In this document: piece by piece, positions 799 through 18,604 of the stretch | How positions within the stretch are numbered: the stretch's first letter is position 1 | How the letters are laid out: each line of letters opens with the position of its first letter | Source: a virus | DNA length: 64,000 nucleotides | Virus record (IMG/VR): IMGVR_UViG_3300006854_000019 | Reading direction: 5' to 3' (one strand) | Notes under the pieces: generated by a model | The model's input: only the letters and a program-made list of their open reading frames with translations | Databases searched by the model: none | Told to the model about the DNA's origin: nothing | Program-made: the position numbers and the translations under genes

Positions 799-1155
799 TC
801 AGGTGGGGATCGCGCGGTGCTTTCGCCAGGGGCGATCGAAGCTCCCGCTACGGCGCGACTTAGGCGCTGTTTTGTGCCCTTTTTTCTCGACATACCAGAC
901 TACGGCGCCGAGCGTGAGAAGACCTGCAATGCTGAGGACGAGCCCTGTCTTCGACGGGGGCGTTGCGTCGCCCATGCCCGAGGTGGCCTTGCCCGAGCAG
1001 GCGCAGCCAACGCCCTGCTGGCGGGGACCGACGAGATTTGGGTTATCGCCCCAGGTAACCCATGGCGATTCCTTCCAGCCGTCTGCATCCGCCTGCCACG
1101 GCGTACCGGGCTGAAACATCTGGTAGTACTCGGGCGTCGTCGATACGTAGCTCAT
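799..1155 (-). CDS. tail-anchored membrane protein, hypothetical (118 aa)
   Basis: Internal ATG of track ORF 799..1242. Begins MSYVSTTPEYY; single C-terminal helix GLVLSIAGLLTLGAVVWYV then a K/R-rich tail; ATGA overlap with upstream gene at 1152..1155. Confidence 0.7.
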   Translation of the reverse strand: MSYVSTTPEYYQMFQPGTPWQADADGWKESPWVTWGDNPNLVGPRQQGVGCACSGKATSGMGDATPPSKTGLVLSIAGLLTLGAVVWYVEKKGHKTAPKSRRSGSFDRPWRKHRAIPT

Positions 1156-1436
1156 GGCTTCTTCTTTCGGAGGAGAACGAACGCGGTCACGACGAGCCCG
1201 CCGCCGATGATCCAGGGCCAGTTCTTTTTCGTGCGATCCCACACGTCCGCTGCCATCGCGTTCACGGCGTCATGCATGATCTGCTGAAGCGGGACATCGA
1301 CCCGGAGCGTCGGGAAGAGCGGAACGTTCGTGGGGATGTCGTACGGCACACCGAGCCCGGCGGCGACGCTGCCCCATTCGGCAGTGCCGTTCGATCGGAT
1401 GATGGCGACCTTGCCACTCAAGTCGGCGTAGCTCAC
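1152..1436 (-). CDS. tail-anchored membrane protein, hypothetical (94 aa)
   Basis: GTG-AGC-TAC start (MSYADLSG); C-terminus WPWIIGGGLVVTAFVLL-RKKKP; GTGA overlap with upstream gene at 1433..1436. Confidence 0.7.
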   Translation of the reverse strand: MSYADLSGKVAIIRSNGTAEWGSVAAGLGVPYDIPTNVPLFPTLRVDVPLQQIMHDAVNAMAADVWDRTKKNWPWIIGGGLVVTAFVLLRKKKP

Positions 1437-1690
1437 GGAACACGCCCCAGGTTATTCGCGCGGACCTCGATTCGCTCGAACACGCTTGCCTCGGGATCTT
1501 CGTCGTACATCTCGACAGCTTCGTCCCCGCCATACCAGCGCGCGCCTTTGCGGCTGTGGATGATGACGTCGAGCGTAGCGCGGCCCCGCTGCAGCGCTTC
1601 TTCTATGGCCGCCAAACAGGCTAGCGAGTAGTCGTCGAAGTAACCGTCGCCGGCGGCATATTCGACATCCGGATGTGTAGGGCTCTTCAT
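1433..1690 (-). CDS. hypothetical acidic soluble protein (85 aa)
   Basis: ATG 1690..1688 overlaps stop of the J-domain gene (ATGA); natural-looking sequence (DVEYAAGDGYFDDYSLACLAAIEEALQRG). Confidence 0.65.
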   Translation of the reverse strand: MKSPTHPDVEYAAGDGYFDDYSLACLAAIEEALQRGRATLDVIIHSRKGARWYGGDEAVEMYDEDPEASVFERIEVRANNLGRVP

Positions 1691-2313
1691 GCCGCAGCCT
1701 TCCGTTTCTCGTACTCAGCCGTGAGGAGATCGAACGCACGCTGGATCTGCTTGAACTTCGCCTCAGCCTTCATCTTCGCTTTTTTCGCTTGGAACTTGTC
1801 CGGGTGCCACTGGCCAGAAAGTTTTCGGTGCGCCTTCTTCACGTCGTCCCAGGAGGACTTTAGATTCACGCCGAGTTGCTTCCGGGCCCACATGAGCTCT
1901 TTCTCATGCTCGGCCACCTGTTCATCGTCGACCTGTGCACGGGTCTTTCCGCCCGGCGCTTCGCGGCGGCGCGAGGAGGTCGCCATCGCTTCGGCAACGC
2001 ACTGGTAGCAAATGGCGTCGCCCTTCACGTCGATGCACGCGTGGGTCAGGCAACAGGGCTGGCGGCACACACCGCAGGCCGTGATCGCGACGCCCGGGCA
2101 CGAGCCGGCGGCTTTGCCGTTCTTGTAGACCAAGACCTCGCAGGCAAACCCCGCCGATAGGCGCGGGAGCCATTTGGGCACGGCATCGATTGCTAGGCTC
2201 TTGAGCCATGGGCGGAGCTCTTGCCAGATACGGGCCGTGCCCGGCGGATCGGCTTGGATGGAGCTTGCAATGCGTGTGAAGGCATCGAGGACCTGGGCGG
2301 CGTTCATAGCCAC
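1687..2313 (-). CDS. J-domain (DnaJ-like) protein with Cys-rich N-terminal region (208 aa)
   Basis: C-terminus WDDVKKAHRKLSGQWHPDKFQAKKAKMKAEAKFKQIQRAFDLL = J-domain helix II / HPD loop / helix III. N-terminal half has a Cys cluster (CPGVAITACGVCRQPCCLTHACIDVKGDAICYQC). GTG at 2313 or ATG at 2307. Confidence 0.85.
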   Translation of the reverse strand: MAMNAAQVLDAFTRIASSIQADPPGTARIWQELRPWLKSLAIDAVPKWLPRLSAGFACEVLVYKNGKAAGSCPGVAITACGVCRQPCCLTHACIDVKGDAICYQCVAEAMATSSRRREAPGGKTRAQVDDEQVAEHEKELMWARKQLGVNLKSSWDDVKKAHRKLSGQWHPDKFQAKKAKMKAEAKFKQIQRAFDLLTAEYEKRKAAA

Positions 2314-2318
2314 CGATG

Positions 2319-2792
2319 TTATCGCTTCTTTTGCAAAACCACTGCACCGACGAGGGCGGCGGCGGCGACAGCGCCGGCGATCATGAGCATTTTCTTCTTT
2401 TTCGCCGCTTCATCGTCCGCGGGCGCGGGCGTGGGCGTCGCATCGGCGCCGAAGCCGAAGCCGGTCAGCGCGGACTTGCGCATGAAGAGTGGCTGGGTCC
2501 GGTGGGGGATGCGCCAAGCGCCAAGTCCACTCATCTGCATCTTCCGGAGGAAGAGCGGGCGGCGGCGGCGCGGGATATGCCACCTGCCAAGGACGCCATC
2601 CGAAAAGGACGTGAGCATCTGCTCGTAACGCGCCGCTGGATCGGCCTGGGAAAACAGCCCATCGCGAAAGCTCCGCGGCTGATCGAAGCCGAGGCTTCCG
2701 TCCGCGTAGGCTTCGCGCTTGGCGCCAAATGCCGCCTGGGGGGTCGAAGTCGAAAAGATCCCGTCCCGAAATGAACGCTCGTTTAACGCCAT
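2319..2792 (-). CDS. tail-anchored membrane protein with RSFRDG(I/L)FS repeats (157 aa)
   Basis: ATG 2792 with GGAG about 10 nt upstream; internal repeats RSFRDGIFS / RSFRDGLFS and RIPxRxxPLFxRK; C-terminus KKKKMLMIAGAVAAAALVGAVVL-QKKR. Confidence 0.75.
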   Translation of the reverse strand: MALNERSFRDGIFSTSTPQAAFGAKREAYADGSLGFDQPRSFRDGLFSQADPAARYEQMLTSFSDGVLGRWHIPRRRRPLFLRKMQMSGLGAWRIPHRTQPLFMRKSALTGFGFGADATPTPAPADDEAAKKKKMLMIAGAVAAAALVGAVVLQKKR

Positions 2793-2851
2793 TGTCCGTA
2801 TCTCCTACAAGCGAGTGTAGGGGGAGCCGGGCAGCGCGCCAAGAAAAAGGG

Positions 2852-3073
2852 CTAAAGTTTCAGCCGCTTCTTGATCTCGGGGCCGTACTTCACGCCCACG
2901 AAGAGCGTCGCGCCTACGAGGATCGTGCCCCAGGCCCAGCCCGGGATCCCCGCCCGTTGCTCGGCCGCGCCGAGCCCAAGAAGCCTGCCGGCGAGGCGTA
3001 TCGGATTGTCGTCGATACGCTCGGCCGCTTCGGCGAGCTTCATCAGATCCTGGGGCGAGCTCGTGAATTCCAC
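2852..3073 (-). CDS. small membrane protein (73 aa)
   Basis: GTG 3073 directly after the TAA of the upstream small ORF; C-terminal helix GWAWGTILVGATLFVGV then KYGPEIKKRLKL. Confidence 0.65.
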   Translation of the reverse strand: MEFTSSPQDLMKLAEAAERIDDNPIRLAGRLLGLGAAEQRAGIPGWAWGTILVGATLFVGVKYGPEIKKRLKL

Positions 3074-3220
3074 TTAGCGCCCGAGCCGGAGACGCGGCGG
3101 CGAGACCATGGCCCAGAAAAGAAGCCCCGCGAAGCCGGCGAGAAGAAGCCAGGCGGCGATCTTGCCGGAAGGCGCAGCCTCATCACCGAGACCGCTGACG
3201 GCCACGATCGGCCGTTTCAC
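3074..3220 (-). CDS. small tail-anchored membrane protein (48 aa), below the ORF-track size cut-off
   Basis: Hand translation: GTG 3220..3218 overlaps the TGA of gene 3217..4023 (GTGA). MKRPIVAVSGLGDEAAPSGKIAAWLLLAGFAGLLFWAMVSPPRLRLGR, stop TAA 3076..3074. Same helix-plus-basic-stub design and coupling as its neighbours. Confidence 0.45.
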   Translation of the reverse strand: MKRPIVAVSGLGDEAAPSGKIAAWLLLAGFAGLLFWAMVSPPRLRLGR

Positions 3221-4023
3221 CGCCGGCCCTGCCAGTAGCGGTAGCCGAGGTAGGCGGCGCCGGCGAAGAGTGCCGTGCCGACGAGCAGCTTGCCGGTCGA
3301 TGGGGGCGCGGCAACGGGCGGCGCCGGCACGCTGGTCGGCGGCGTAGATGTGGGCGCTGCGTGGATCTGCGCGCCGAGGGCGATGCCAAAGGGGAGATCA
3401 GGATGCTGCCGCTCGCTGCCCGAGCGGGGCACTTGCACCGGGAACACGAGCTGGCCATTCAGGCGCCGGGCCGCGTCGTCCATCGTGCCGCGGCCGCCGT
3501 CGCGATCGTCGGGATCGGTGCGCGCTGTGGCCCAGTACAAAAACTGGATCTGCGGCACGGGCTTCGGATCGTCCTGCCGGTAGACGCCTTCGGCGGCGAA
3601 GAGCTTGTAGGGGCGCCCGGTGAACGCCGTCTCGGCCGCCATGTACTCGACCGGAACGGGCGTAAGTACGCCGACCCAACCGATGTCGTGGCCGAAGGCC
3701 GCCGATGACGCCATCGATAGGATCTGCTGGCTCAGCGGGTAGACGATGATGTTCTGGTCGGGCGTACGGATGTCCTGCCAGTCAATGCTGCCCTCTTGCT
3801 CGCCCCACGCCGTGTACACACCGATGGGTTGCACAGGCGTCGTGGCGCCGGGGAACTGGCCGCGAAGAATGGCCTCGAGTGTCTGTTCGCCGAAGCCCAT
3901 GCCGCTTGGCATTTCGGCGATCGAACCGAGCCCATTGATCGGCTGGTTGTACGCGTTCTTGTAGTAGGCGCCGAGACCGTTGATGGCCTGGTTGTACTGG
4001 TTTTTGTAGTAGGCGCCGAGCAT
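3217..4023 (-). CDS. tail-anchored membrane protein with N-terminal GLGAYYKN-YNQ-INGLG repeats (268 aa)
   Basis: ATG 4023 with GGAG 8 nt upstream; two N-terminal repeats LGAYYKNQYNQAINGLG / AYYKNAYNQPINGLG; Pro/Thr linker; C-terminus GKLLVGTALFAGAAYLGYRYW-QGRR. Confidence 0.8.
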   Translation of the reverse strand: MLGAYYKNQYNQAINGLGAYYKNAYNQPINGLGSIAEMPSGMGFGEQTLEAILRGQFPGATTPVQPIGVYTAWGEQEGSIDWQDIRTPDQNIIVYPLSQQILSMASSAAFGHDIGWVGVLTPVPVEYMAAETAFTGRPYKLFAAEGVYRQDDPKPVPQIQFLYWATARTDPDDRDGGRGTMDDAARRLNGQLVFPVQVPRSGSERQHPDLPFGIALGAQIHAAPTSTPPTSVPAPPVAAPPSTGKLLVGTALFAGAAYLGYRYWQGRR

Positions 4024-5181: not shown

Positions 5182-5457
5182 TTACGCCGTGTACACGGCT
5201 CCATCGATGACGTGCCCGTGCCACTGGCAGCCTGTGGGCAGGAGGATCGACGGGCGCAGGGTCAGGTTTGCGAGGCCGGTTCCGGTCGCATGCCAGCGCC
5301 CGGGCCCTGGCGTCACGCCGGCGGGCACGTTTCGCCCGGCGAACCAGACCAGGAGCGAATGCTGGTCGGTGAAGCGGCACTTCGGGCAGAGGAAAGTAAC
5401 GCCGCCGGCAAGCGAGAGATCGTCCGTGTGGACGAGAAGCTCGCGATCGCCCTCCAT
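5182..5457 (-). CDS. small Cys/His protein, DUF6527-like (91 aa)
   Basis: FLCPKC...W(x)GTGLANLTLRPSILLPTGCQWHGHVIDGAV resembles the CPxC ... PS(I/L) ... C-x-H-G-x-(I/V)-x-x-G pattern of a phage-associated family I recall as DUF6527. Confidence 0.5.
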   Translation of the reverse strand: MEGDRELLVHTDDLSLAGGVTFLCPKCRFTDQHSLLVWFAGRNVPAGVTPGPGRWHATGTGLANLTLRPSILLPTGCQWHGHVIDGAVYTA

Positions 5458-6610: not shown

Positions 6611-6636
6611 GGCGCTTGGCGTTTCGGGAGGAGTTC

Positions 6637-7389
6637 TTACTGAACGTCTCGCGAGAACAGACCGTCGAACGTGAAGGTCACGACCTTTTGGATCGCGTCG
6701 ATCGCGTTCAGGTTGTCCCGGAGGCTCAGCATGTCGCGCGACCCTTGGGTCGTGCCGAACAGCTGCGCGTTGCCGTTCGCGCTCATGCCGAAGATCTTTG
6801 CCTGGCAAAGGATGTTCTGGCGGGGCGGGAGCAGGATCGCGCGCGCGAGCCGGAGGATGCCCGAGTGGCCATCGTTGCCGGAGTTCTGCCAGTGGATGAG
6901 GTCGGTCGTGCCGCCCATGTCACCGGAGATTCCGCCGCCGGCCGGGAAGTACCAGGTCGGCATGTTGTCGATGGAGTTCTTGAGGCCGGTGCCGAAGCTC
7001 CAGTGCAGCTGCTCTGCCGTCTGCCAAATCAGACGGTAGTAGTCCTGCACGGTGCCCGGGGCCTGACCCTCGGCGATACCGCCAGTGAGCCACGCCTCGA
7101 GAGAGCCGTAGTCACCGTTCTGCGCCACTTCACCGTCGGCGCCGCCGTCGATCCGCAGGATCGGATTGCGGTACCAGGCGAAGACGCGCAACGCGAGAAC
7201 GACGTGGCTCTGATCGGACGGCAGAGTCGAGCCGTTGATCAGGTTGGTCGTCGACTCGTTGCGTTGCCCGTTCGAGGTGAACAGGCTCGTCGTGTCGGTG
7301 AGGGAACCGGCGCTGAGGCCGGCTGTGCGAACGAGCGTATCCCAAAATGGCTGATGAACGCGCTCGCGAATCGAAACTACCTTTGCCAT
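6637..7389 (-). CDS. major structural protein candidate (250 aa; possible single jelly-roll capsid protein)
   Basis: ATG 7389 (MAKVVSIRERVHQPFWDT). N/G/T/S-rich all-beta-looking sequence ending KVVTFTFDGLFSRDVQ. Preceded by a 276-nt structured leader and followed by clustered hairpins, as expected for a highly expressed capsid gene. Fold assignment is inference only. Confidence 0.6.
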   Translation of the reverse strand: MAKVVSIRERVHQPFWDTLVRTAGLSAGSLTDTTSLFTSNGQRNESTTNLINGSTLPSDQSHVVLALRVFAWYRNPILRIDGGADGEVAQNGDYGSLEAWLTGGIAEGQAPGTVQDYYRLIWQTAEQLHWSFGTGLKNSIDNMPTWYFPAGGGISGDMGGTTDLIHWQNSGNDGHSGILRLARAILLPPRQNILCQAKIFGMSANGNAQLFGTTQGSRDMLSLRDNLNAIDAIQKVVTFTFDGLFSRDVQ

Positions 7390-7614
7390 TGTGTCTTTTG
7401 TCCTTACAGGGCTTCCATTTTTAGAGTGGCTGGTTCCACTTCGTGGATCCCTTTCGGAAGAGCCACAATTCGACCCTGTTGTCGGATGTTCGGGCTGGCA
7501 CTACACGGCACAACCATTGTTCCGTGTGAGCGCCTTCAACGCCCCAAGGCCCGAGCTCCTGGTTTTCCAGGAGACATCGAGCCCGGGAGCGCGGCTGGAT
7601 TCCCTTCTCAGGGA

Positions 7615-7640
7615 CTCACGGTCACCCGCATGACCGTGAG
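7615..7640 (-). terminator. perfect 10-bp stem-loop 26 nt downstream of the polybasic-protein gene
   Basis: CTCACGGTCA-cccgca-TGACCGTGAG; no U-tract follows, so termination is only a possibility. Confidence 0.3.
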
Positions 7641-7665
7641 GGAGCGCACCAGCCTTCGTGATGGA

Positions 7666-9735: not shown

Positions 9736-9827
9736 CGGTGACTACCTCGTCAGGCAGATCCCTGCGTTGCTCGCAGGGACAGCCGGTCAGTCCGATGAAG
9801 GAGATCCGGTGTTTCGCGGTAAAACCC

Positions 9828-9870: not shown

Positions 9871-10044
9871 CTATTTCTTGCGCGCCAGCCAAAGAATGCC
9901 GGCAGCAGCAAGAAGGCCGATTCCGATGATCCCGCGAGTGGTCAGGAGCTTCGTTTGCGGGTGCGATTCGTTGTAGGACGGGGCGTTCGTAAGGACCGGC
10001 GGCGGGTGGAGGTCATCACCTACGGGGAAGTTTGCGTACGACAT
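9871..10044 (-). CDS. tail-anchored membrane protein (57 aa)
   Basis: ATG 10044 (MSYANFPVGDD) overlaps TGA of upstream gene by 1 nt; C-terminus RGIIGIGLLAAAGILWL-ARKK. Confidence 0.6.
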   Translation of the reverse strand: MSYANFPVGDDLHPPPVLTNAPSYNESHPQTKLLTTRGIIGIGLLAAAGILWLARKK

Positions 10045-10916
10045 CAGCGGGTCCTCCAAAGCACGAGTCCGAGGGCAGCGGCGCCGGCGACGAGAAGTGC
10101 CGTGTTGCGGATCGTCTCCGATTGTTTCTGTGCGTGGCCAACGAGATGCTCATGCTCGCGCACGACGGCAGTGTAACGGAGTAGCACGCGCGGGGTCGCG
10201 CCGAGGAGCGCGTTCGTGGCATCGGCCAAACGCTGCACAGACACCGCCGGCGGGAAGCTGCAGACGTTGTAGGGCACCGTGTTTGGTGGGAGAGACGAGG
10301 GGGATCCGTTCCAGCCTGGTGGCGGGAACAGATCCATTGCACCAGCGGCCACGAGCTCAGCCCACGAATTGATCGGTGTGAGCGCGCCCTTGTACATGGC
10401 AGTCGGCGGCTTCACTTCCGGATGGGCGCGGCGCGCATCATCGACCGCCTTGATCGAAGCATTCTGCTGGCGCAAGTACTGCTCGTGCAGCGGCGCACAC
10501 GCGCGGAGCTCGGCTGCGGCGCGCATGCGTTCGCCAGCGTGGTCCAGGTAGTCCTGGCAGGCTGGCGTGTTGTGGAACGTCGCGCCGCCCGCGCGCATCT
10601 GTTCGCAGAAGTTACACGGATCGAAACTGTGCACGGTGTTGCAGTCGATCGGGTGACTCACGCCGAAGATGTCATCGAGGACATCGGCCACGGCGCCCAC
10701 GATGGCGCCGGCGACTGCGCCGCAGGGCCCTGGCGGAATGCCGTAGGCCGCGCAGTACGCGTTCGCGGCGCAGCTTGCGCCGTTTTTCGCGGCGTTTTTT
10801 CGCCCGTCGCCCGTCGATAGATCACCGTGGGCAGCGAGTTTCGCGCAATTGCCCATCTTGACGTCGATGTCTTTGCCTTTGTCGTCGCCGAGACCGCGGA
10901 AGAATTGGTAGCTCAT
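10044..10916 (-). CDS. Cys-rich tail-anchored membrane protein (290 aa)
   Basis: ATG-AGC-TAC start (MSYQFFRGLGDD), ATGA overlap at 10913..10916; many Cys in the ectodomain; C-terminus NTALLVAGAAALGLVLW-RTR. Confidence 0.75.
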   Translation of the reverse strand: MSYQFFRGLGDDKGKDIDVKMGNCAKLAAHGDLSTGDGRKNAAKNGASCAANAYCAAYGIPPGPCGAVAGAIVGAVADVLDDIFGVSHPIDCNTVHSFDPCNFCEQMRAGGATFHNTPACQDYLDHAGERMRAAAELRACAPLHEQYLRQQNASIKAVDDARRAHPEVKPPTAMYKGALTPINSWAELVAAGAMDLFPPPGWNGSPSSLPPNTVPYNVCSFPPAVSVQRLADATNALLGATPRVLLRYTAVVREHEHLVGHAQKQSETIRNTALLVAGAAALGLVLWRTR

Positions 10917-11470
10917 CCGGTGATCCCGTCCTTTTCCACGTCGAGTACTTCGCCGGTCACGAGCGCATGCACGCCGGCTTGCGTGTACACGATGAGCATC
11001 ATCTGCCCTGTCTCGGGATGCTTCGTAGCACCGAGCCAGCCGGCAAGATTGATCTGGTAGTAGCCGCCGCGATCGGGAATGCCGTAGTCATCGGGCGTGC
11101 CTTCGTGCAGGCGGGCCTGGATGCCAAGGATCTTGGCGAGCACGGCAAAGCCTTCAGGCATGGGCCGCGGGAGTTCGAGCATCGGGCCCACAAAGTCGTC
11201 GTCATCTTCGGCGAAGATCACAGAACCCGGGGTGAGAAGGAGATTCTGGTTACCTTCGGCGATGTGCTTGTAGTCGACCGGCACTTTCTCGCGCCACTTG
11301 TCGGAGCTGTACATCACCGCCTCGCACGTGCCCACGTGCTGCATCCGCCGCGGCCAGGTCCAGGAGACCGGCGTGATCTTGTTCGCGGGTTCGTCATAGA
11401 ACGTCTCGCGGATCTTTTTGGCCCGCTCGATGTCGCTTTTTCGGTTCGGCGTGTAGATGCGGCGGATCAT
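10913..11470 (-). CDS. hypothetical soluble protein (185 aa)
   Basis: Internal ATG 11470 (MIRRIYTPNRK) forms an ATGA overlap with the stop of 11467..11793; no TM helix; no motif recognised. Confidence 0.7.
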   Translation of the reverse strand: MIRRIYTPNRKSDIERAKKIRETFYDEPANKITPVSWTWPRRMQHVGTCEAVMYSSDKWREKVPVDYKHIAEGNQNLLLTPGSVIFAEDDDDFVGPMLELPRPMPEGFAVLAKILGIQARLHEGTPDDYGIPDRGGYYQINLAGWLGATKHPETGQMMLIVYTQAGVHALVTGEVLDVEKDGITG

Positions 11471-11793
11471 CGGTTTCGCTTCCAGATCCACCAGCCGATG
11501 CCGATGCCGAGGGCGAGCATGCCGATGTTGCCGATGCCGATGCTCATGCTGGCGCCGAGTACGCCCGAGCGGGACATGGGCGCAACGAGCCCGCGCGCTA
11601 CGGGTCCGGAACCGACACGGGTCGAACCCGAGGGGATGGAACGGCCCGCTTCGTTACTCGGGATCCCGATGTCGGTACCGCCTGACAGGCGTGGCACGGG
11701 CAGATCATCGCCGATGCCGACCGATTGACCGGGCGCATCGTAGTAGTCGTACCCGCCGATGTCCGGGCGCCATTGAGAGTAGATCACGCCCAA
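11467..11793 (-). CDS. tail-anchored membrane protein (about 106-108 aa)
   Basis: TTG 11793 or GTG 11787 start; high third-position G+C in this frame across 11705..11793; C-terminus MSIGIGNIGMLALGIGIGWWIW-KRNR. Confidence 0.6.
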   Translation of the reverse strand: MGVIYSQWRPDIGGYDYYDAPGQSVGIGDDLPVPRLSGGTDIGIPSNEAGRSIPSGSTRVGSGPVARGLVAPMSRSGVLGASMSIGIGNIGMLALGIGIGWWIWKRNR

Positions 11794-12145
11794 GTATGAT
11801 CCGCTGGCTTACGCGGGAGGTCCAGATTTCGCGCCGGAACTGCTGCCCACGATCTGAAACGCCACCTGATCGACAGCGCCTACGGTAGTTCCATCGCCGA
11901 AGGGGCAGGGGCGCGAGCATCCACTCGAGGCTCGGGATCGTGTCGGCGTCATCCTTCATGGCATCGAATTCTGCCTGGGTGATCCCGATCACGAGAAAGC
12001 CCTGCCGCTTGTAAACTTGCCGGCGGCGGTCGCGGGCTGGCCGCTTCGCCTCTTCATGGGCCAGTTGAACCGCCCCCTCGAAGCTCACGATTTCCAGACC
12101 TCGGCGGCGACGTGCGATCCGGCGGTCAGCGGGCGTTTCTTTCAT
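11705..12145 (-). CDS. hypothetical basic protein (146 aa as read); 3' end doubtful
   Basis: ATG 12145 in ATGA overlap with upstream gene. The N-terminal ~85 aa look coding. The last ~100 nt have poor third-position G+C and overlap the next gene by 89 nt (see finding). Confidence 0.5.
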   Translation of the reverse strand: MKETPADRRIARRRRGLEIVSFEGAVQLAHEEAKRPARDRRRQVYKRQGFLVIGITQAEFDAMKDDADTIPSLEWMLAPLPLRRWNYRRRCRSGGVSDRGQQFRREIWTSRVSQRIILGRDLLSMAPGHRRVRLLRCARSIGRHRR

Positions 12146-13209
12146 GGCAGATCGGCTAGCTCGGCCCAGCGGGTTTGTTCCCGGGCGTCTTCGACCGCGC
12201 GCATCCCGCCCTGGTTTGCACGAAAAAGCCTGCCTTGGCGGTTTTCGGTGCCGGGATCGAGGTTCGCTTCCCAGCGGTAGCGCATGTCATCCACGTCGTT
12301 TTCGCTGAGGCCCGAAGCGATGTACGCGAGGCTCAAGAAGTTCACGGCGTCCGGATCAAGCCCGCGGACGTCGAGCGCAAGAAGCGTTGTCGATTCGGCA
12401 GCGTAGATCGTGCCCGGTGTTTTCAAGATTTCCTTCCAAAGCCAAAGGATCGCGCTTTCGTCGGGCACGCTTTCCGGGATCGCCACGCCGAGCTCGACCG
12501 CTACCAGGTTGTGTTTCTCCGCACTTTCGTACTCGTAAATGTCGTACGAGACTTCCTTCTCGCGCTCGATGTCCACGTTCAGCGTGTTGACGTATCGGAC
12601 TTTGGCGTCCTCGTAGTCGAGCGTGACGCAGCCTTCAATTTCGTCGGCGGTGATGTTGAGGTCCACGCCCTCTTCGACTTCTTCTTCGGTCTCGGTGTGC
12701 TCTTCGGTAAGGCCCTTGCTTGCGGCTGCCGACCACCAGCGCGATGCGGCGTGCGAGCGGGAGCTCGAGGCCGAGGAGATGCCATCCTTCGACTGGTTCT
12801 TCGGCCACATGTCGATCGCGACATCCGGCAGGTTGTAGTTCGCGTACGCACCAAGACTCAAGGCGGTATAGAGCGAGGTGCCGTAGCCGCCGCCCTTGAT
12901 CGCGACGCCATCGGGCGTGTGCGCGCGTGGGTAGCCCGTGATGCGCGCCGGCTCGGCGTAGTCCGAATGGCGATCGCTTTCGTAGTAGCCGACGCCGAGA
13001 CGGGCGAGAAAGTTATTGGCGCGGAGGCTTCGGATGCCCACGTAGTCCCCATCGGTGATGGTGATGAGCGGCTCCTGGAGTTTCGGGTTCACCACGATGC
13101 CAAGAAGCATGCGGCCGCTGAGCTCGATCTTTGGGCGGCCGGCGCCGGGCGTCGGCGCGCTGAGCTCAAGTCCGGTGTTTCTGCGGTAGCGCGGCATGCC
13201 CCGCCTCAC
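12142..13209 (-). CDS. hypothetical protein with central acidic stretch (355 aa)
   Basis: GTG 13209 in GTGA overlap with the stop of 13206..13487 (alternative ATG 13197); acidic EEHTETEEEVEEGVD segment; no motif recognised. Confidence 0.75.
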   Translation of the reverse strand: MRRGMPRYRRNTGLELSAPTPGAGRPKIELSGRMLLGIVVNPKLQEPLITITDGDYVGIRSLRANNFLARLGVGYYESDRHSDYAEPARITGYPRAHTPDGVAIKGGGYGTSLYTALSLGAYANYNLPDVAIDMWPKNQSKDGISSASSSRSHAASRWWSAAASKGLTEEHTETEEEVEEGVDLNITADEIEGCVTLDYEDAKVRYVNTLNVDIEREKEVSYDIYEYESAEKHNLVAVELGVAIPESVPDESAILWLWKEILKTPGTIYAAESTTLLALDVRGLDPDAVNFLSLAYIASGLSENDVDDMRYRWEANLDPGTENRQGRLFRANQGGMRAVEDAREQTRWAELADLP

Positions 13210-13487
13210 TTCGGGCGGCGCATTACGACGAGGCCGATGGCCAGGACGCCGAGTCCGAGCGCCCAGAGCATCGTCTTGTCACTCGAGCGCTCGCAGGTGC
13301 CGGCGCAGTAGTCGAGGCTCAGGAGGTGCGCGATCTGTTCGGGGGTGCAGAGACCGCCTTGGTTCGTTTGGCAATCTTCGACGATCTTCTGGTTCAGCTC
13401 GTCGCTGTAGCAGGTGTACGACTGATCGGCGGGCTTTGCCGTCGGTGTCGAGTCGAAGGGCCAGACGCCCATCGCCTGATAGCTCAT
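13206..13487 (-). CDS. Cys-containing tail-anchored membrane protein (93 aa)
   Basis: Internal ATG 13487 (MSYQAMGVWPF), ATGA overlap with upstream stop; C-terminus TMLWALGLGVLAIGLVVM-RRPK. Confidence 0.65.
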   Translation of the reverse strand: MSYQAMGVWPFDSTPTAKPADQSYTCYSDELNQKIVEDCQTNQGGLCTPEQIAHLLSLDYCAGTCERSSDKTMLWALGLGVLAIGLVVMRRPK

Positions 13488-14380
13488 GCTGTAGCCGCCG
13501 TTTTCTTCGCGCTCATGAAGCGCTCGGTCACCTGGGGCAAGAATTCGATGAGCAGAAAGACGCCGACACCGATGCCGCCGATGTACATCGCGGTCTTGTA
13601 CCAATCGACGTTCGCGCCTTCGGCGAGCTTGTTGCAGAGATCTTTTTGATCCTGGGTCGGGTTCGGCATCTGCTGGCAGAGCCGGATGTCTTCGTGCAGG
13701 CGCCGGTTATTCGTTGCTGCGTACTCGTAGAGCGCAACGATCGTGGCCAGGCCCAGGATCAACGCCACGGCGGCAACCAGAATGCCGACCGGGATCACGG
13801 GCACTTCGCCGAGCCCGGACGCGCCGCCTTGCGACTTCATGAGCGCGATCGAATGCGCGACCGCTGCGTCCACCTGGTGCACGGTGCCCGATTGGAGCTC
13901 GGGGCTCGTGATGATGTACTTCTGAAGAATGCCGCTTTCGCCGATCTTTGCGACGGCCTGGAAAAGCGTGAGCCGGGCCTGGTAGTCCAGGCCGAATTGT
14001 TCGGGGCCGAGTTTCGCCTGGGCGGCGACCACGTTCGCGTGGCCCCAGTGCGCCGGCGCGCCGTCCGCTGCCGCGATGAAGGCTGCAACCAGGATGTCCC
14101 GGAGCACATCGAACGATGTCTGCACCGCGAGCGAGACGGGAACCGAGGCGTAACCAAGAAATCCGAGCACGCCGTCGGCGCGCTTCGTGAGATCTTTTCG
14201 CATCGCCGCCATTTCGGCGAACGCATTCCGGGGCGCGATCGCGTCGATGCCGGGCAGCATGTTGATCTGCACGAGCGCGCGCGTGTACCACTGGTCGAGC
14301 CAGAGGGCGCGGGTGACTTCATCGTTCGAGGGGGACGACTCGACCGTGAAGCGGACTGCAAGATCCTTGTAATCGGCCAT
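13484..14380 (-). CDS. membrane protein, two helices in the C-terminal third (298 aa)
   Basis: ATG 14380 (MADYKDLAV); helices VPVIPVGILVAAVALILGLATIVALY and AMYIGGIGVGVFLLIEFL. Confidence 0.75.
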   Translation of the reverse strand: MADYKDLAVRFTVESSPSNDEVTRALWLDQWYTRALVQINMLPGIDAIAPRNAFAEMAAMRKDLTKRADGVLGFLGYASVPVSLAVQTSFDVLRDILVAAFIAAADGAPAHWGHANVVAAQAKLGPEQFGLDYQARLTLFQAVAKIGESGILQKYIITSPELQSGTVHQVDAAVAHSIALMKSQGGASGLGEVPVIPVGILVAAVALILGLATIVALYEYAATNNRRLHEDIRLCQQMPNPTQDQKDLCNKLAEGANVDWYKTAMYIGGIGVGVFLLIEFLPQVTERFMSAKKTAATA

Positions 14381-14386: not shown

Positions 14387-14776
14387 TCAGGCGTGCTTCG
14401 GCTTCTTCTTGTGCTTCTCCCACTCCTTGTAGCCGTAGTACGCGCTACCGAGGGAAGCGACGGCGATGAGGCCGTAGGCCCAGAAGGGAACCTGGTTCAA
14501 GGCAGAAGCAATGTCGCGCTTCCACGCCGGCATCTCCGCGCCCGTTTCCACGAAGCGGCGGAACGCCTCGGGCAGGATGCTCGAATCGGTCGGTACATCG
14601 CCGAGGCCGTCGGGCGTCCGGCCCATGTCCGTGTAGTACCCATCGTCATACGGAGCGCGGAAGTTCGACACGTCACCGTACATGCGTCCCGGCGGCCAGG
14701 CGGCGCCGAGGCCCTGAAACGGTACGCCGATGAACGGCGACCGAAAGGACTGCATGCCGATGTACTTCCGACTCAT
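14387..14776 (-). CDS. tail-anchored membrane protein (129 aa)
   Basis: Internal ATG 14776 (MSRKYIGMQSF) in ATGA overlap with upstream stop; C-terminus VPFWAYGLIAVASLGSAYYGY-KEWEKHKKKPKHA. Confidence 0.65.
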   Translation of the reverse strand: MSRKYIGMQSFRSPFIGVPFQGLGAAWPPGRMYGDVSNFRAPYDDGYYTDMGRTPDGLGDVPTDSSILPEAFRRFVETGAEMPAWKRDIASALNQVPFWAYGLIAVASLGSAYYGYKEWEKHKKKPKHA

Positions 14777-15384
14777 GCGTGTATCCAACCCTTCTTTTTG
14801 GCGATCGCGTAGCCGATGACGCCGACGGCCGCGATGCCGCCACCGACCATCAGCATGCTGGCCGTGGTCATCTTCGGCTTGGTCGGCGCAAGCACGGGAT
14901 TGGTCACCGGCGTCGGGGTCGGCGCGGGCGGCGGCGGGGGTGGTGGTGGCGGGGCCAGGTGCGGATCGTAGGAGAACGACTTGCACGTGCCGGGCACGGA
15001 GAAGCCCGAGCCGCCATTGTCGAGCGCCCACTTGAGCGCGCCGCAGGTGCCGGGGCCGAGCTTTCCGTCAGCGCCGACCGTGGCCGCGCCCTTCGAGGCG
15101 AGGAAATTATTCAGGGTGCGCTGCATGAGCGCGGTGTTCGAGCTGTACGTACCCCAGGGGTATGAGCTTGCCGGTCCGCCGCCGCCGGCATTGATCCCGT
15201 GCTGCAGGCCGCCCGTTGCGCAGTTCGCCTGGCAGATGGTGCGATTTCGCGTATCGTCCTCGTCGAAGGACGGGTACTGCGCGCCGCACTTGTCCAGGCA
15301 CTGGTTGAAGCTGAAATCGTCGAGGCCGGAGTCGTCAGCGCCGACGCCGCGATTTTTCGTCTTGAAAATACCCATCCCTTGCAT
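14773..15384 (-). CDS. tail-anchored protein with peptidoglycan-binding-like domain and poly-Pro linker (203 aa)
   Basis: LMQRTLNNFLASKGAATVGADGKLGPGTCGALKWAL fits the PG_binding_1 pattern (LQ..LN..G....vDG.fGp.T). Then PPPPPPPPPAPTPTP and the helix MLMVGGGIAAVGVIGYAIA-KKKGWIHA. Confidence 0.7.
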   Translation of the reverse strand: MQGMGIFKTKNRGVGADDSGLDDFSFNQCLDKCGAQYPSFDEDDTRNRTICQANCATGGLQHGINAGGGGPASSYPWGTYSSNTALMQRTLNNFLASKGAATVGADGKLGPGTCGALKWALDNGGSGFSVPGTCKSFSYDPHLAPPPPPPPPPAPTPTPVTNPVLAPTKPKMTTASMLMVGGGIAAVGVIGYAIAKKKGWIHA

Positions 15385-15390: not shown

Positions 15391-16104
15391 CTATCCTTTC
15401 CTCTTCTTCATGAAATAGATGAGCGCGGCGGCAGCGATCCCGCCGACCACGAGAGCCTTGGTTTCCGAGCTCATGTTCGCCGGCGAATAGCGCCCGGGGA
15501 GTTTCGTGCCGGTGGGCGGGGGAACGACCGAGCCGCCGGGCGGCTTCGTGCCGCCACCCCCGCCGCCGGAACCACCACCCGATGCGCCGCAGTTCGGGCC
15601 CTTCTTCGGGGGCGTGCCGAAACCCTGGCATGTAGAAGGTGGCGGCATGCCGATCGGGATCATCGCGGCGCAGGTGCCGGCGCCGAGTTTTCCGTCAACT
15701 GGGATCGGGCAGTATCCGGCGGCGACGAGCGCGAGATTGATCGAGCCCTGAAGGCCGACCGTGGCCGTGCTGTACTCGCGCCACGGGTAGCCCGCGTCAT
15801 CGCCGAGCCCGCGGAGCCCGCTGATCCCGTTGTTGAAGATCCCGCCGCCCGCCTCTTCGGTGCCGAAGATGCCGCGTTTGGTTTCCCACAAGAGTTCGCC
15901 GAGGCCGGAGAGGCCAGAGAGTCCCGACATGGATGATCCTTTTTCCTGCCAGATGTCTTCGGGCTTGAAGACCGACTGGGGCGAGGTCCTGTAGATGAGG
16001 GGGCCCGTGACCGGACGCGTGTAGATCGGGCCGTGGAACCGCGTGGGCCACGGATGCACCGTCCAAACGAACGGTGAGGGGACGCCCGAATCTTGATACC
16101 GCAT
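15391..16104 (-). CDS. tail-anchored protein with peptidoglycan-binding-like domain, paralogue of 14773..15384 (237 aa)
   Basis: ATG 16104 with AAGGA/GAGGA upstream (track start 16113 is TTG). VGLQGSINLALVAAGYCPIPVDGKLGAGTCAAM; Gly/Pro linker; C-terminus ALVVGGIAAAALIYFM-KKRKG. Confidence 0.7.
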   Translation of the reverse strand: MRYQDSGVPSPFVWTVHPWPTRFHGPIYTRPVTGPLIYRTSPQSVFKPEDIWQEKGSSMSGLSGLSGLGELLWETKRGIFGTEEAGGGIFNNGISGLRGLGDDAGYPWREYSTATVGLQGSINLALVAAGYCPIPVDGKLGAGTCAAMIPIGMPPPSTCQGFGTPPKKGPNCGASGGGSGGGGGGTKPPGGSVVPPPTGTKLPGRYSPANMSSETKALVVGGIAAAALIYFMKKRKG

Positions 16105-16116
16105 CGTCCTCAATCC

Positions 16117-16533
16117 TTACCGATGGTGAAGCGCGACTGCCGCCTCGATACCGAGACCGAGCGGTCCGAGAAAGAGTCCCGCCGCAACGCCCCAGAGGGC
16201 GTACTTCATTTGCTTATCGCGCGAGGGAGCGACCGCCTTGCCCACGAAGTAGCCGGCACCGGCGCTGATGGCGGCGCCGAGCAGCGCCATGCCGAGACCG
16301 ACGGGATAGTTATGACCCGTGGCCGGGACGTTCGTGGTTGGCGGCGTTGCGTCTGCCGAGAGCGCGCCGAGCGCACTGAGCGCGGGAGAATACTTGCCGA
16401 GCGAGGAGAGCACGCCGGGGCGACGCTGGGGCGTGCGCGCGATCGCGCCGAGCCCTGACATGGGCTCGTTGAAATACTCGCCCATGCCGCTCATCGGTTC
16501 GTCGAAGTATTCGCCCAGTCCAAGTTGGTTCAT
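16117..16533 (-). CDS. membrane protein with N-terminal GLGEYF-EPMSG-G repeats (138 aa)
   Basis: MNQLGLGEYFDEPMSGMGEYFNEPMSGLG, then two C-terminal helices (VGLGMALLGAAISAGAGYFVG, YALWGVAAGLFLGPLGLGIEAAVAL); ATGA overlap at 16530..16533. Confidence 0.75.
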   Translation of the reverse strand: MNQLGLGEYFDEPMSGMGEYFNEPMSGLGAIARTPQRRPGVLSSLGKYSPALSALGALSADATPPTTNVPATGHNYPVGLGMALLGAAISAGAGYFVGKAVAPSRDKQMKYALWGVAAGLFLGPLGLGIEAAVALHHR

Positions 16534-17219
16534 TTGCCTTTCCTTCGTTTCGAGCTCCGGAGCGATGCGTACGCGGCGCCGGCAGCAAGACCGGCAAGGC
16601 CGATGAGGCCGATGACTTTCCAGTTCGAGGAGAGACCCGGCGCAGGCGCGTCGTCGGCGCCGATCGCTTGCGGGTTCTGCCGCACGTTGACGATCGATTG
16701 CATCGCCATGGGCGAGCCCTGGCCCGCGCGCATCACGGGACGCGGGGGCGCGTAGACGCCGCCTTCGAGGTAGGCGATCTGCGCGGCGCTATCCATGCTC
16801 ACCGCACCGCTCGGCACGTACACGACGGGGCGGCCCGTCGTCACATCGACCACTTCACTCGGCTCCCACATCCGCTCGCGCGCGAGGTAGCCGGGGAGAT
16901 CGAAGCGCGCGGCAAGAATGCCGGCGTCCGCGTTGATGTTCGGGCGCGTACCGGGCGGATCGAAGACCCCGTTGCCTTGGATGTCGTCGGCTTCGGCGTA
17001 GACCGCGAGCTCGTTCGCGGCGTAGGCCTGATCGGCCGCTTCGTCCTGCACATCGACATCGGAACCGGCGAGATGGCGGCCGTGCGCACGATCGATCGCG
17101 GTCTGGTAAAATGGAGCCGTGCCTGAGGAGTAGCGAAGATCGCTCGGGCCCACCTGGGTCATCCGGGGGAGCTCCCCGCTCCAGGGCTGGTTGTCGTAGT
17201 CGGGATAAATCGGGCTCAT
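16530..17219 (-). CDS. tail-anchored membrane protein (229 aa)
   Basis: ATG 17219 (MSPIYPDYDN); C-terminus WKVIGLIGLAGLAAGAAYASL-RSSKRRKGK. Confidence 0.75.
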   Translation of the reverse strand: MSPIYPDYDNQPWSGELPRMTQVGPSDLRYSSGTAPFYQTAIDRAHGRHLAGSDVDVQDEAADQAYAANELAVYAEADDIQGNGVFDPPGTRPNINADAGILAARFDLPGYLARERMWEPSEVVDVTTGRPVVYVPSGAVSMDSAAQIAYLEGGVYAPPRPVMRAGQGSPMAMQSIVNVRQNPQAIGADDAPAPGLSSNWKVIGLIGLAGLAAGAAYASLRSSKRRKGK

Positions 17220-17223
17220 CGGT

Positions 17224-17562
17224 TCACCGTTTCTTCTTCATCGATCGGTAGGCGATGATGCCACCACCGACGACGAGGGCGGCGACGAGGCCGCCGATGA
17301 CGAGCTTCTTTTTCTGATCGTCTTCACCCGATCCGGCTCCGGCTCCGCTGTCGGTCGGCGTGCCGCGGTCGGTGTGCGTCGGCACCGACGTCATGGACAC
17401 GCACGGGCGAAGCGTCTGCACCCAGCACGGATCGGCGCCTGCGAAGCGGCCGCTGAGCGCGCCGAGACCCGCGATCACGGGGTGGCAGTTCGCGCGCGCT
17501 TCGATGAGCTCGGCCTGCGTTGCGCAGGTGGGGTATCCACCGTTTCCGAGTCCGCTGTACAT
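17224..17562 (-). CDS. tail-anchored protein with YPTCATQA...ADPCWVQTL domain (112 aa)
   Basis: Internal ATG 17562 (MYSGLGNGGYPTCATQAELIEARANC...GADPCWVQTLRPC) overlapping the upstream stop by 1 nt; C-terminus KKLVIGGLVAALVVGGGIIAY-RSMKKKR; paralogue of 17936..18604. Confidence 0.65.
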   Translation of the reverse strand: MYSGLGNGGYPTCATQAELIEARANCHPVIAGLGALSGRFAGADPCWVQTLRPCVSMTSVPTHTDRGTPTDSGAGAGSGEDDQKKKLVIGGLVAALVVGGGIIAYRSMKKKR

Positions 17563-17921
17563 CACGCTGCCTTTCGATGGCGGTAGTAAAGAAATCCGGC
17601 GATGGCGACCGCCGCTGCGATGCCGCCATAGAGCGCATAGTTCGGTTTGCTCGAGGCCGGAGGGACATCGCTCCGCGGCGGAACGAGACTGCCGCCGTTC
17701 GGCGGCGTGTTCGTGTTCGGCGGGGGCTGCGTTCCGCCACCACCACCGCCGCCGCCACCGGTCCACCACGAGTCGTGCGTGGTCGGCGGGACGTTGGTCA
17801 TTTTCGGCGCCACGTGGCTGTCGGTCGGCACACTCGAAAGGCGCGGGGCGATGTGCTCGTCACCGGGCGGCGTGTAGTCCGATTGGACCTTGATATTGAT
17901 GTCTCCGATGGCGGCGTACAT
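17562..17921 (-). CDS. tail-anchored membrane protein, Gly/Pro-rich (119 aa)
   Basis: ATG 17921 (MYAAIGDINIKVQ); GGGGGGGGG / PPPNTNTPP stretch; C-terminus YALYGGIAAAVAIAGFLYY-RHRKAA. Confidence 0.65.
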   Translation of the reverse strand: MYAAIGDINIKVQSDYTPPGDEHIAPRLSSVPTDSHVAPKMTNVPPTTHDSWWTGGGGGGGGGTQPPPNTNTPPNGGSLVPPRSDVPPASSKPNYALYGGIAAAVAIAGFLYYRHRKAA

Positions 17922-17935
17922 CGTCTCGGTGCTCC

Positions 17936-18604
17936 TTACTTTTTCCGTTTCTTCCAGACACGATAAGTGACGTACGCGCCGCCGACCAGAAAAGCAGCCA
18001 AAACTCCAACCGAGCGAAGTCCACCGGCGTTTTTCTGGTCCGTTGTCTCAGGCGTCGGGATCGGCGGCGGTTCGTAGATCCCGGGATCCGGCGTTTCGGT
18101 CACCGATGATTTCGGTGGCGGTGGCGGCGGCGCGAACGGCGGCGAACGCGTGGGTGGTGGCGGGGGCGGTGTGTTTTGCTTCGGCGGTGGTGGCGGCGGC
18201 GTGGTGTACCAGGGGCCCGTCGGCGAAGGTTTCGGGGGCGGGGGCGGGGTGGGCTTCGGGCGTGGCGGCGGCGGCGTGAACCACGTGCCGACCTTGGGCG
18301 GCGGCTTCGGTGGGGGTGGCGGCGGAGGCGTGGGCTTTGGGCGCGGCGGCGTAAACCAGTTGCCGACTTTGGGCGGCGGGGGTTTCGGTGGCGGCGGCGC
18401 GGAACGGGCGGGCGGCGTGAACCAGGTGCCGGTTCTGCAAAGCGGCAGCGTCTGCACCCAGCAGGGATCGGCGCCGCCGAAGCTCCCGGTCATGCCGAGG
18501 CCGGCAAGGTTACGGGCGCGGCATTCGATCTTGGCCTGATCGATATCCGCTTGTGTCGCGCACGTGGGATAGGCACCGAGGGGAGGGATTGCTGCGTAGC
18601 TCAT
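17936..18604 (-). CDS. tail-anchored protein: YPTCATQA...ADPCWVQTL domain + (T/N)WFTPP-polyPro repeats (222 aa)
   Basis: ATG-AGC-TAC start (MSYAAIPPLGAYPTCATQADIDQAKIEC...GADPCWVQTLPLC); four repeats of xWFTPPxxxPKPxPPPP; C-terminus LRSVGVLAAFLVGGAYVTYRVW-KKRKK. Confidence 0.75.
   Translation of the reverse strand: MSYAAIPPLGAYPTCATQADIDQAKIECRARNLAGLGMTGSFGGADPCWVQTLPLCRTGTWFTPPARSAPPPPKPPPPKVGNWFTPPRPKPTPPPPPPPKPPPKVGTWFTPPPPRPKPTPPPPPKPSPTGPWYTTPPPPPPKQNTPPPPPPTRSPPFAPPPPPPKSSVTETPDPGIYEPPPIPTPETTDQKNAGGLRSVGVLAAFLVGGAYVTYRVWKKRKK

Follow-up and report, generated by a model that had tools for sequence, protein, structure and literature searches.

Here, we analyze a 64,000-nucleotide (nt) stretch of the IMG/VR virus record IMGVR_UViG_3300006854_000019, referred to as the window, and describe an 18-kb block at positions 799 to 18604 in which, to our knowledge, tail-anchored proteins are clustered far more densely than in any other prokaryotic system. 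We demonstrate that the architecture of this block is nonrandom and conserved in related elements, that the block holds a core of conserved genes, and that it encodes a protamine-like membrane protein and a J-domain protein. On balance, we favor the reading that the block serves as the module for virion morphogenesis in a so far undescribed family of bacterial viruses with circular double-stranded DNA genomes of ~95 to 180 kb, a particle whose lipid membrane is loaded with tail-anchored proteins, and possibly Planctomycetota as hosts. All cultured membrane-containing phages that we know of have genomes of ~9 to 44 kb. The diversity of these phages is the subject of a review (PMC6356626). If our reading is correct, a membrane-based family with a circular genome of ~135 kb extends this range about threefold, and non-tailed phages reach the size of “large phages.”

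A conserved block of tail-anchored proteins

Gene calling based on codon usage yielded 28 genes in the block, with all convincing genes on the minus strand, and these calls match the public calls on identical contigs. An earlier note on this DNA had listed 19 membrane protein open reading frames (ORFs) in the block, and all are present on the minus strand where it placed them, with ATG, GTG or TTG starts. Seventeen of the encoded proteins are tail-anchored by hydropathy, i.e., they have one helix no more than ~30 residues from the C-terminus and no signal peptide. Several lines of evidence support that this architecture is a property of the block. First, using a Kyte-Doolittle scan (17-residue window, mean ≥1.5, single segment ending ≤25 residues from the C-terminus), a single C-terminal hydrophobic segment was found for 13 of the 28 block genes vs. 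2 of the 79 window genes outside the block (Fisher p = 1.6e-7). Second, residue shuffles of the same 28 proteins gave 1.25 ± 1.04 such proteins and never more than 5 (500 shuffles). Third, scanning with a 15-residue window adds the remaining four tail-anchored proteins (3217-4023, 14387-14776, 10044-10916 and 799-1155), giving the total of 17. All 17 helices are followed by a basic Lys/Arg stub as quoted in the earlier note. The hydropathy scan detected no hydrophobic segment within the first 35 residues of any of the 17 proteins and, therefore, no signal peptide is apparent. Thus, the shared architecture proposed earlier for 17 genes holds up against hydropathy and the shuffle control. The helix lies at the extreme C-terminus in general but not in the protein encoded by 799-1155, in which it spans residues 70 to 86 of 118 and precedes a 32-residue basic tail. 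Three more genes encode multi-span membrane proteins. Two of these had been described as having two helices, which is accurate for 16117-16533, while 13484-14380 has two to four hydrophobic segments. The third, a 689-amino acid (aa) ORF at 7666-9735, had been overlooked and changes the previous estimate of about 19 of about 30 genes to 20 of 28 genes (71%; 17 anchored, two multi-helix and the 689-aa ORF).

The genes of the block are tightly coupled. Among the 27 junctions, nine are 4-nt ATGA/GTGA overlaps and two are 1-nt TGATG overlaps, in agreement with the coupling reported before; most others are ≤14 nt, and gaps of 135 to 354 nt are almost confined to the surroundings of the four core genes described below. 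Only two pairs of the 17 anchored proteins align with each other, i.e., 14773-15384 with 15391-16104 and 17224-17562 with 17936-18604, supporting a common architecture rather than an expanded gene family. Short sequence features recur nonetheless. Six block proteins start with M-S-Y, the number given previously, and such N-termini are six-fold enriched among the tail-anchored proteins of the family (9.6% vs. 1.6%). A G(L/M)GEYF.EPMSG motif occurs both in the C-terminal part of the 689-aa protein (8000-8200, minus strand) and at the N-terminus of 16117-16533 (16450-16530, minus strand), a GLGAYY motif in 3217-4023 (at 3930-4020), and SFRDG(I/L)FS in 2319-2792 (at 2700-2790). These recurrent short aromatic motifs and M-S-Y termini may be docking motifs. 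The regions upstream of the core genes share no common k-mer of ≥8 nt that could represent a promoter motif, and a scan for consensus sigma-70 promoters and terminators was uninformative.

The best-conserved genes of this virus-like family (95 to 182 kb) lie amid the tail-anchored genes, which favors a role of the anchored proteins in a virion membrane. Fifteen relatives were found in IMG/VR (63 to 179 kb, most 110 to 140 kb), with further members reaching 182 kb. Each of the 15 relatives encodes 5 to 17 tail-anchored proteins within the 21 kb that surround the gene for the core protein P315, and among 989 nonredundant proteins from related loci 260 (26%) are tail-anchored, 77% of them with a tail of net charge ≥ +2. 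P250 (6637-7389) is the most conserved protein of the family, with 51 to 81% identity in 15/15 relatives; it has 687 homologue clusters at 70 to 88%, all unannotated and on contigs of up to 138 kb. P315 (5505-6452, ORF to 6467) is 35 to 63% identical in the relatives and has >650 homologue clusters at ~60% identity, again all unannotated. The fourth core gene encodes P280 (4174-5016, ORF to 5169), a soluble protein of 280 to 331 aa depending on the start, with 27 to 44% identity in 15/15 relatives and a homologue in the distant locus L031. P250 and P315 far exceed all other proteins of the family in conservation, and strong conservation together with many unannotated clusters is what capsid proteins usually show.

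The remaining core gene is 7666-9735. The N-terminal 372 residues of its 689-aa product are protamine-like (33% Arg and 12% Lys) and are followed by two to three membrane helices, G(V/M)GEYF repeats and a conserved GGQGVFG C-terminus. The basic part has a third-codon-position G+C content of 0.70 to 0.82, indicating that it is coding. Public gene callers skip this part, and a spurious antisense ORF of 1041 aa (6616-9741, plus strand) covers the same DNA. In all relatives, the gene immediately preceding P250 encodes a homologue of 590 to 940 aa. Even at ~30% identity, relatives retain the succession of basic membrane protein, P250 and P315, and on L031 the P280 homologue comes next.

Two further conserved proteins match Pfam families. 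The J-domain protein (1687-2313; Pfam DnaJ, E = 5e-12), which has a Cys-rich N-terminal part, is kept in 13/15 relatives and in the distant locus L032; we propose that it acts as a co-chaperone by which host DnaK is brought to the tail-anchored proteins. At the upstream edge, 18608-19132 (minus strand) encodes a 174-aa protein with a papain-like transglutaminase core (Pfam Transglut_core, E = 3e-7) that is found at the same position in 14 IMG/VR contigs with 47 to 66% identity and is a candidate maturation protease. The conservation of this protein, of an 839-aa coiled-coil protein and of an acidic protein at this edge argues for an assembly module.

A candidate virion-morphogenesis module and its alternatives

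Structure predictions are consistent with a capsid function of P250 and P315. Their AlphaFold (AF2) models are beta sandwiches of eight to nine strands. The P315 model (predicted local distance difference test [pLDDT] score 70) combines an N-terminal helical hairpin with the sandwich, and the P250 model (pLDDT 56, predicted TM-score 0.58) has eight strands in a jelly-roll-like order. Weak Foldseek matches of P315 in the PDB include single-jelly-roll capsid proteins of HHIV-2 (6h82_A), P23-77 (VP16, 3zn5_H) and SH1 (6qt9_C), all with E ~0.07 and Foldseek probabilities of 0.2 to 0.4, and VP4 of SPV1 is among its weak matches in BFVD (E = 7e-3, probability 0.75). The conservation of P250 and P315, their beta-sandwich models and the enrichment of membrane-virus capsids among these weak matches count in favor of a capsid module. 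We infer that P250, P315 and P280 may form the shell. P315 and P250 were also considered as paralogues, an idea rejected because hhalign shows no relationship between them.

Altogether, we suggest the following scenario for assembly. The ~17 unrelated anchored proteins would be synthesized in the cytoplasm and inserted posttranslationally by means of their moderately hydrophobic, Gly/Ala-rich C-terminal helices, with the J-domain protein recruiting host DnaK to keep them soluble before insertion. In Escherichia coli, DnaK keeps tail-anchored proteins from aggregating, and anchors of moderate hydrophobicity need no assistance for insertion (PMC6794478). The N-terminal domains would remain on the cytoplasmic face while the Lys/Arg stub locks the helix; judged from the sequences, these domains are probably cytoplasmic. 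The 689-aa protein would anchor its protamine-like domain in the same membrane and condense the genome against it, and P250, P315 and P280 would assemble on this patch of membrane into a protein shell. With their GLGEYF, GLGAYY, DG(I/L)F and M-S-Y motifs, the N-terminal domains could serve as linkers between capsid and membrane or as templates, comparable to P3 and P6 of PM2. The transglutaminase-like protein would act as the maturation protease, and the 839-aa coiled-coil protein and the acidic protein as scaffold. Because no packaging ATPase was found, we propose that genome enclosure may be concurrent with the formation of membrane and shell instead of pumping into a procapsid. For PM2, the membrane proteins P3 and P6 have been proposed as capsomer templates, and encapsidation as concurrent with membrane and capsid formation (PMC6356626). 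In the simplest topology, the protamine domain and the N-terminal domains are on one face of the membrane and, therefore, wrapping fits better than a PRD1-type vesicle.

Several observations weigh against this scenario. The presumed lipid bilayer is deduced solely from the share of membrane protein genes (20 of 28), the topology calls come from hydropathy alone, and the orientation of the N-terminal domains is derived from them. It is topologically difficult to combine a lumenal protamine domain with a PRD1-type internal vesicle formed from the cytoplasmic membrane. The beta sandwich is a common fold, and the confidence of the P250 model is low (pLDDT 56). The best Foldseek matches in the PDB have E = 0.035 for P315 and E = 0.59 for P250, neither of which is significant; across both models, no PDB match reaches E ≤ 0.001, the three BFVD matches below 0.001 have TM-scores <0.2, and the P250 matches, none below E = 0.5, are noise. 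Profile hidden Markov model searches of PDB sequences returned nothing for P250, and P315 matched only coiled-coil chains, with E ≥ 1 and within its N-terminal helical region. The module contains no packaging ATPase; DnaB is the sole protein with a Walker A motif in the window and the flanking loci L020 and L023 (record positions 33,216-116,077, ~83 kb). The element also has plasmid-like features, i.e., ParB, a two-component system, glycosyltransferases and, in the relative R9 (IMGVR_UViG_3300006854_000001), a tyrosine recombinase. Finally, ~43 kb of the genome, or ~15 kb if R9 is syntenic, lies outside the part that was read directly. The earlier note had left the choice between the membrane proteome of an internal-membrane virion and a virus-encoded envelope-remodeling system; the former is favored here in its general form, but the capsid assignment is without statistical support.

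Searches for known virus and transfer functions bear on all explanations of the block. We covered record positions 24,620-116,077 of 134,701 (68%; 91.5 kb) and, in R9, 1-29,104 and 113,177-135,429 (38%; 51 kb). Families matched in the window by Pfam, PHROGs and NCBIfam (for the latter two, the 25 best of 59 and of 50 families, respectively) include DnaB, beta clamp, RuvC, ParB, methylases, the DnaJ domain, glycosyltransferases and a peptidoglycan-binding domain. Within the block, only the DnaJ domain of 1687-2313 and a weak DUF6527 match in 5182-5457 were found, and the structural candidates including P250, P315 and P280 have no family match in these databases. Among the 105 window proteins, neither Pfam nor the best 25 PHROGs and NCBIfam families include a terminase, portal, HK97 capsid or tail protein. 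The earlier note had named portal, terminase or tail genes just outside the window as a finding that would speak against an internal-membrane virion; no tailed-phage hallmark was found in 21 flank proteins, in further candidates or in the precomputed Pfam labels of the flanking loci, which weakens this objection for the 68% of the genome covered. Nor were such hallmarks found in the sampled parts of R9, where there are small ORFans, the tyrosine recombinase and a TnpB-like gene. No FtsK/HerA packaging ATPase family of Pfam or PHROGs was detected in the window and flanks, the precomputed Pfam labels for record positions 24,620-33,215 contain no P-loop ATPase, and no Walker A protein is consistently present near the core genes of the 15 relatives, DnaB/primase being found in L058. 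Pfam and NCBIfam gave no relaxase, no type IV secretion ATPase (VirB4, VirD4) and no plasmid replication initiator in the window, which also has no sortase, exosortase or rhombosortase family. An exhaustive profile search with P250 against 1.84 billion representatives returned only 111 matches, of which many were fragments, and did not connect it with any known family. No match was obtained by tblastn with P250 in GenBank phages or in PLSDB (72,556 plasmid records), or with two flank proteins in GenBank phages.

With these results in hand, the alternatives can be compared. An enveloped particle, in which the membrane encloses a core of nucleoprotein or a capsid, the cytoplasmic leaflet faces inward, and the N-terminal and protamine domains form a tegument or matrix as in phi6 or SPV1, would differ from the assembly scenario above only in the position of the membrane. 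It would agree with the simplest topology, which places the protamine and anchored N-terminal domains on the same cytoplasmic side and hence the DNA there, and with the lack of a detected packaging ATPase, as in SPV1, whose VP4 is a weak fold match. However, no block protein combines a signal peptide with a large ectodomain suited to an outer spike, the short basic stubs would be the sole exposed parts, and the beta-rich spike candidate described below is without a membrane anchor; we consider an enveloped particle unlikely. Still less probable, in our view, is a tailed phage that has its genes for head, tail and terminase outside the sampled part and in which the block has an accessory function in remodeling the inner membrane, e.g., for a replication compartment, lysis or superinfection exclusion. 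At ~135 kb, the genome has the usual size of a large tailed phage, the element carries replication genes (DnaB, clamp, RuvC and methylases) as well as a PHROG that also occurs in 163 tailed phages, and 32% of this genome is outside the direct reading. Yet no hallmark was found in 91.5 kb here or in 51 kb of the circular relative R9, and if R9 is syntenic, the ~15 kb left is too little for the full head-tail module of a 135-kb phage. Moreover, the most conserved genes of the family are in the middle of the block, whereas accessory genes are usually the least conserved, and the protease, coiled-coil and acidic proteins flank the block as in an assembly module.

We regard as equally improbable that the element is a large plasmid-like element rather than a virus, and that the block builds transfer vesicles (a “plasmidion” similar to haloarchaeal pR1SE) or another membrane organelle. 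ParB, the two-component system, the sugar-modifying enzymes, the R9 tyrosine recombinase, the circular topology, the binning of contigs into metagenome-assembled genomes (MAGs) and the lack of a detected packaging motor would suit such an element. By contrast, no relaxase, type IV secretion or coupling-protein ATPase was detected in the window, Walker A motifs in the window, L020 and L023 occur only in DnaB, and P250 has no match in the 72,556 plasmid records; the long co-directional runs of overlapping small ORFans are phage-like, and the extreme conservation of two small beta-sandwich proteins and a protamine-like DNA condenser point away from a plasmid. The helix and basic stub could also be read as a cleavable sorting signal for a sortase, exosortase or rhombosortase because the succession of polar region, hydrophobic helix and Lys/Arg cluster resembles LPXTG, PEP-CTERM and GlyGly-CTERM signals. 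Sortase-type substrates need an N-terminal signal peptide, though, and with signal peptides in 0/17 proteins, no conserved motif before the helices and no sorting enzyme family in the window, we rejected this idea as scarcely credible.

The favored virion-morphogenesis module resembles several known systems without matching any of them. In the Helvetiavirae (P23-77/Matsushitaviridae, SH1, HHIV-2 and HCIV-1), small beta-sandwich proteins are likewise encoded side by side and next to many small membrane proteins, and the only capsid-like matches of P315, which are not significant, include P23-77 VP16, HHIV-2 and SH1 chains. However, their genomes are 17 to 31 kb while that of the present element, at 135 kb, is 4 to 8 times larger. 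The ATPase-major capsid protein (MCP)-MCP block is their signature, whereas no FtsK/HerA-type ATPase adjoins the candidate capsid genes here. There is no sequence similarity or significant structural similarity, and the membrane proteins of the block are mostly tail-anchored and accompanied by a protamine-like one. PM2 and PRD1 similarly have runs of small membrane proteins in the structural module, and the assembly route of PM2 is the one proposed here; they differ in having 10 to 15 kb, ~10 membrane proteins, a capsid protein with a double jelly roll and a packaging ATPase (the latter two were not detected here), and in lacking a protamine-like protein. SPV1 (Portogloboviridae) has a jelly-roll capsid, a lipid layer and a condensed nucleoprotein core but no packaging ATPase, a combination that may apply here as well; it differs by its archaeal host, its 20-kb genome and the absence of sequence similarity. 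We know of no comparable set of tail-anchored proteins in SPV1.

Poxviruses and other nucleocytoplasmic large DNA viruses offer an analogy. They have many unrelated virion membrane proteins with a C-terminal helix that are inserted posttranslationally, Cys-rich cytoplasmic domains, a maturation cysteine protease, basic core proteins that condense DNA, and glycosyltransferases. Their hosts are eukaryotic, whereas the element described here has a prokaryotic organization (4-nt overlaps and GTG/TTG starts) with bacterial-type DnaB, beta clamp, RuvC and ParB, and no homology was detected. Among cellular proteins, those of the E. coli DjlC, Flk and ElaB/YqjD type also have a single C-terminal helix and no signal peptide, and the block has its own J-domain protein. 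However, cellular tail-anchored proteins are few and scattered, in contrast to 17 unrelated ones within 18 kb and ~26% of the proteins in related loci.

More tentatively, and with considerable doubt on our side, the family could represent a new high-rank lineage unrelated to the HK97 and known jelly-roll lineages, in which a ~135-kb circular genome is condensed, without a motor, by a membrane-anchored protamine-like protein onto a membrane patch with dozens of tail-anchored proteins, and this patch templates a shell of P250, P315 and P280. Such a lineage would include the largest membrane-containing phage by about threefold and be a bacterial counterpart of poxvirus- or SPV1-like membrane wrapping. 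Independently of this, the block with its own J-domain protein is a natural model for posttranslational membrane insertion in bacteria. The family is widespread, and we found no description of it in the literature searched. That the family has >650 protein clusters each for the core genes of P250 and P315 and is present in IMG/VR without a recognizable hallmark gene suggests that whole virus lineages may stay invisible to marker-based classification.

Genes of the block and its surroundings

The block starts with two M-S-Y proteins, the 118-aa membrane protein of 799-1155, with orthologues in seven relatives, and a 94-aa tail-anchored protein (1152-1436) with the tail RKKKP. Between these and the J-domain gene lies the gene for an 85-aa soluble acidic protein (1433-1690) that is translationally coupled with its neighbors. 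The J-domain gene is followed by the genes for a 157-aa tail-anchored protein with repeated SFRDG(I/L)FS (2319-2792), for the most widely conserved anchored protein (73 aa, 2852-3073; 14/15 relatives), for a 48-aa tail-anchored protein (3074-3220) and for a 268-aa tail-anchored protein with N-terminal GLGAYY repeats encoded by a 45-nt tandem repeat (3217-4023; 13 relatives). Between the core genes for P280 and P315, 5182-5457 encodes the 91-aa protein with the weak DUF6527/BubE-like match, which is not conserved and is probably an insertion.

On the other side of the core, a 57-aa (9871-10044) and a 290-aa Cys-rich tail-anchored protein (10044-10916), both starting with M-S-Y, precede a conserved soluble protein of 192 aa that ends in EKDGI(T/V)G (10913-11491), is present in 13 relatives and L032, and is a candidate minor structural protein. 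A tail-anchored protein of 106 to 108 aa (MIYSQWRPD...; 11467-11793; 11 relatives), a poorly conserved soluble acidic protein of 351 aa (12142-13209) and a 93-aa Cys-rich tail-anchored protein with an M-S-Y start (13206-13487) come next. The 298-aa protein of 13484-14380 carries its hydrophobic segments in the C-terminal part. It is followed by tail-anchored proteins of 129 aa (14387-14776; 9 relatives), 203 aa (14773-15384) and 237 aa (15391-16104), the latter two being the paralogues mentioned above. The two-helix protein of 16117-16533 has 138 aa. The far end of the block encodes tail-anchored proteins of 229 aa (16530-17219), 112 aa with a conserved Cys motif (17224-17562), 119 aa and rich in Gly/Pro (17562-17921), and 222 aa, proline-rich, with an M-S-Y start and 75-nt tandem repeats (17936-18604), which is the paralogue of the 112-aa protein.

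Upstream of the protease gene, the proline-rich 839-aa coiled-coil protein (20414-22933, minus strand), a candidate scaffold or size-determining protein, is conserved at this position in relatives, as are three genes upstream of it (23147-25073, minus strand), whose products have 197 aa with an acidic tail, 214 aa, and 212 aa with an N-terminal helix. The replication genes come after these upstream neighbors.

Other window genes have homologues associated with the block in relatives. A plus-strand gene (31496-33262) encodes a 588-aa beta-rich protein of tailspike-like composition, and its L058 homologue is inside the tail-anchored block; it is a candidate receptor-binding spike displaced from the block, with a putative beta-helix fold. 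A 379-aa protein (46673-47812, plus strand), whose L059 homologue is also inside the block, combines a nucleophile elbow of the GxSxG type (GFSAGG) with a hydrophobic helix at its C-terminus and may be a membrane-bound esterase or lipase. Homologues of 59860-63207 (plus strand), which encodes a 219-aa zinc-ribbon-like protein and a 439-aa GT1-like glycosyltransferase (61888-63207), directly follow the tail-anchored block in relatives. That relatives carry the first two inside the block and the third right after it indicates that the window genome has been rearranged.

The element, its relatives and a possible host

The window belongs to the ENA contig k141_3898925 of 134,701 bp and has a G+C content of 64%; a tRNA scan found none. 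Many window genes have orthologues in the relatives despite fast sequence divergence. R9 has 135,429 bp, and its first and last 120 bp are identical (L061/L062), indicating a complete circular genome. Directly after the block, a gene for a 646-aa TnpB/Cas12f1-like protein (TNB domain, E = 8e-7) extends from window positions 2-754 (minus strand) into L023 (10402-12342). This gene has no counterpart in any relative and is located where gene order differs, suggesting an insertion sequence-associated rearrangement. R9 has a second TnpB-like gene at record positions 27,479-28,945 and its tyrosine recombinase at 11,841-12,857.

The host is possibly a member of the Planctomycetota, although the evidence for this is weak. 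Four of nine MAG contigs with P250 are binned as Planctomycetota, and distant relatives with ~30% identity are on contigs in Deltaproteobacteria, Planctomycetota and Phycisphaeraceae MAGs. If this host is correct, the elements would be among the first viruses characterized for that phylum. The flanks encode sugar enzymes, a two-component system and a 906-aa protein of cellular type (L145, 14703-17423). The latter, a lactonase-type beta-propeller with a weak CCP_MauG match, has >560 relatives with 50 to 59% identity that are encoded in normal bacterial chromosomes; the element seems to have acquired it from a cell, and it may be of use in identifying the host. The two-component system, which is unusual for a virus, consists of a response regulator, a histidine kinase and a second response regulator (L020, 16904-19124) and is located just past window position 64000. 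Glycosyltransferase and methyltransferase-like genes and a gene for an NAD-dependent sugar epimerase/dehydratase are found at 61888-63207, in L023 (15842-16921) and in L145 (4462-5888 and 20309-end); these sugar-enzyme genes possibly represent a glycosylation toolkit as in giant viruses.

A 432-aa protein (L023, 13702-15000) belongs to phrog_2319 (E = 1.5e-69), a family without an assigned function that is present in 163 GenBank tailed phages, including phages of Vibrio, Aeromonas and Streptomyces and jumbo phages. Together with the membership in IMG/VR, this supports that the elements share the phage gene pool. A 177-aa protein is also widespread in phages. Within the window, a 126-bp tandem repeat at 40645-40898 (two copies, 92% match) coincides with a divergent strand switch and a change in the sign of the GC skew and is a candidate origin or regulatory region. 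The G+C content dips to 0.58 at 30 to 32 kb, and ~1.4 kb of gene-poor sequence separates the DnaB region from the isolated plus-strand gene for the 588-aa protein (29130-31500).

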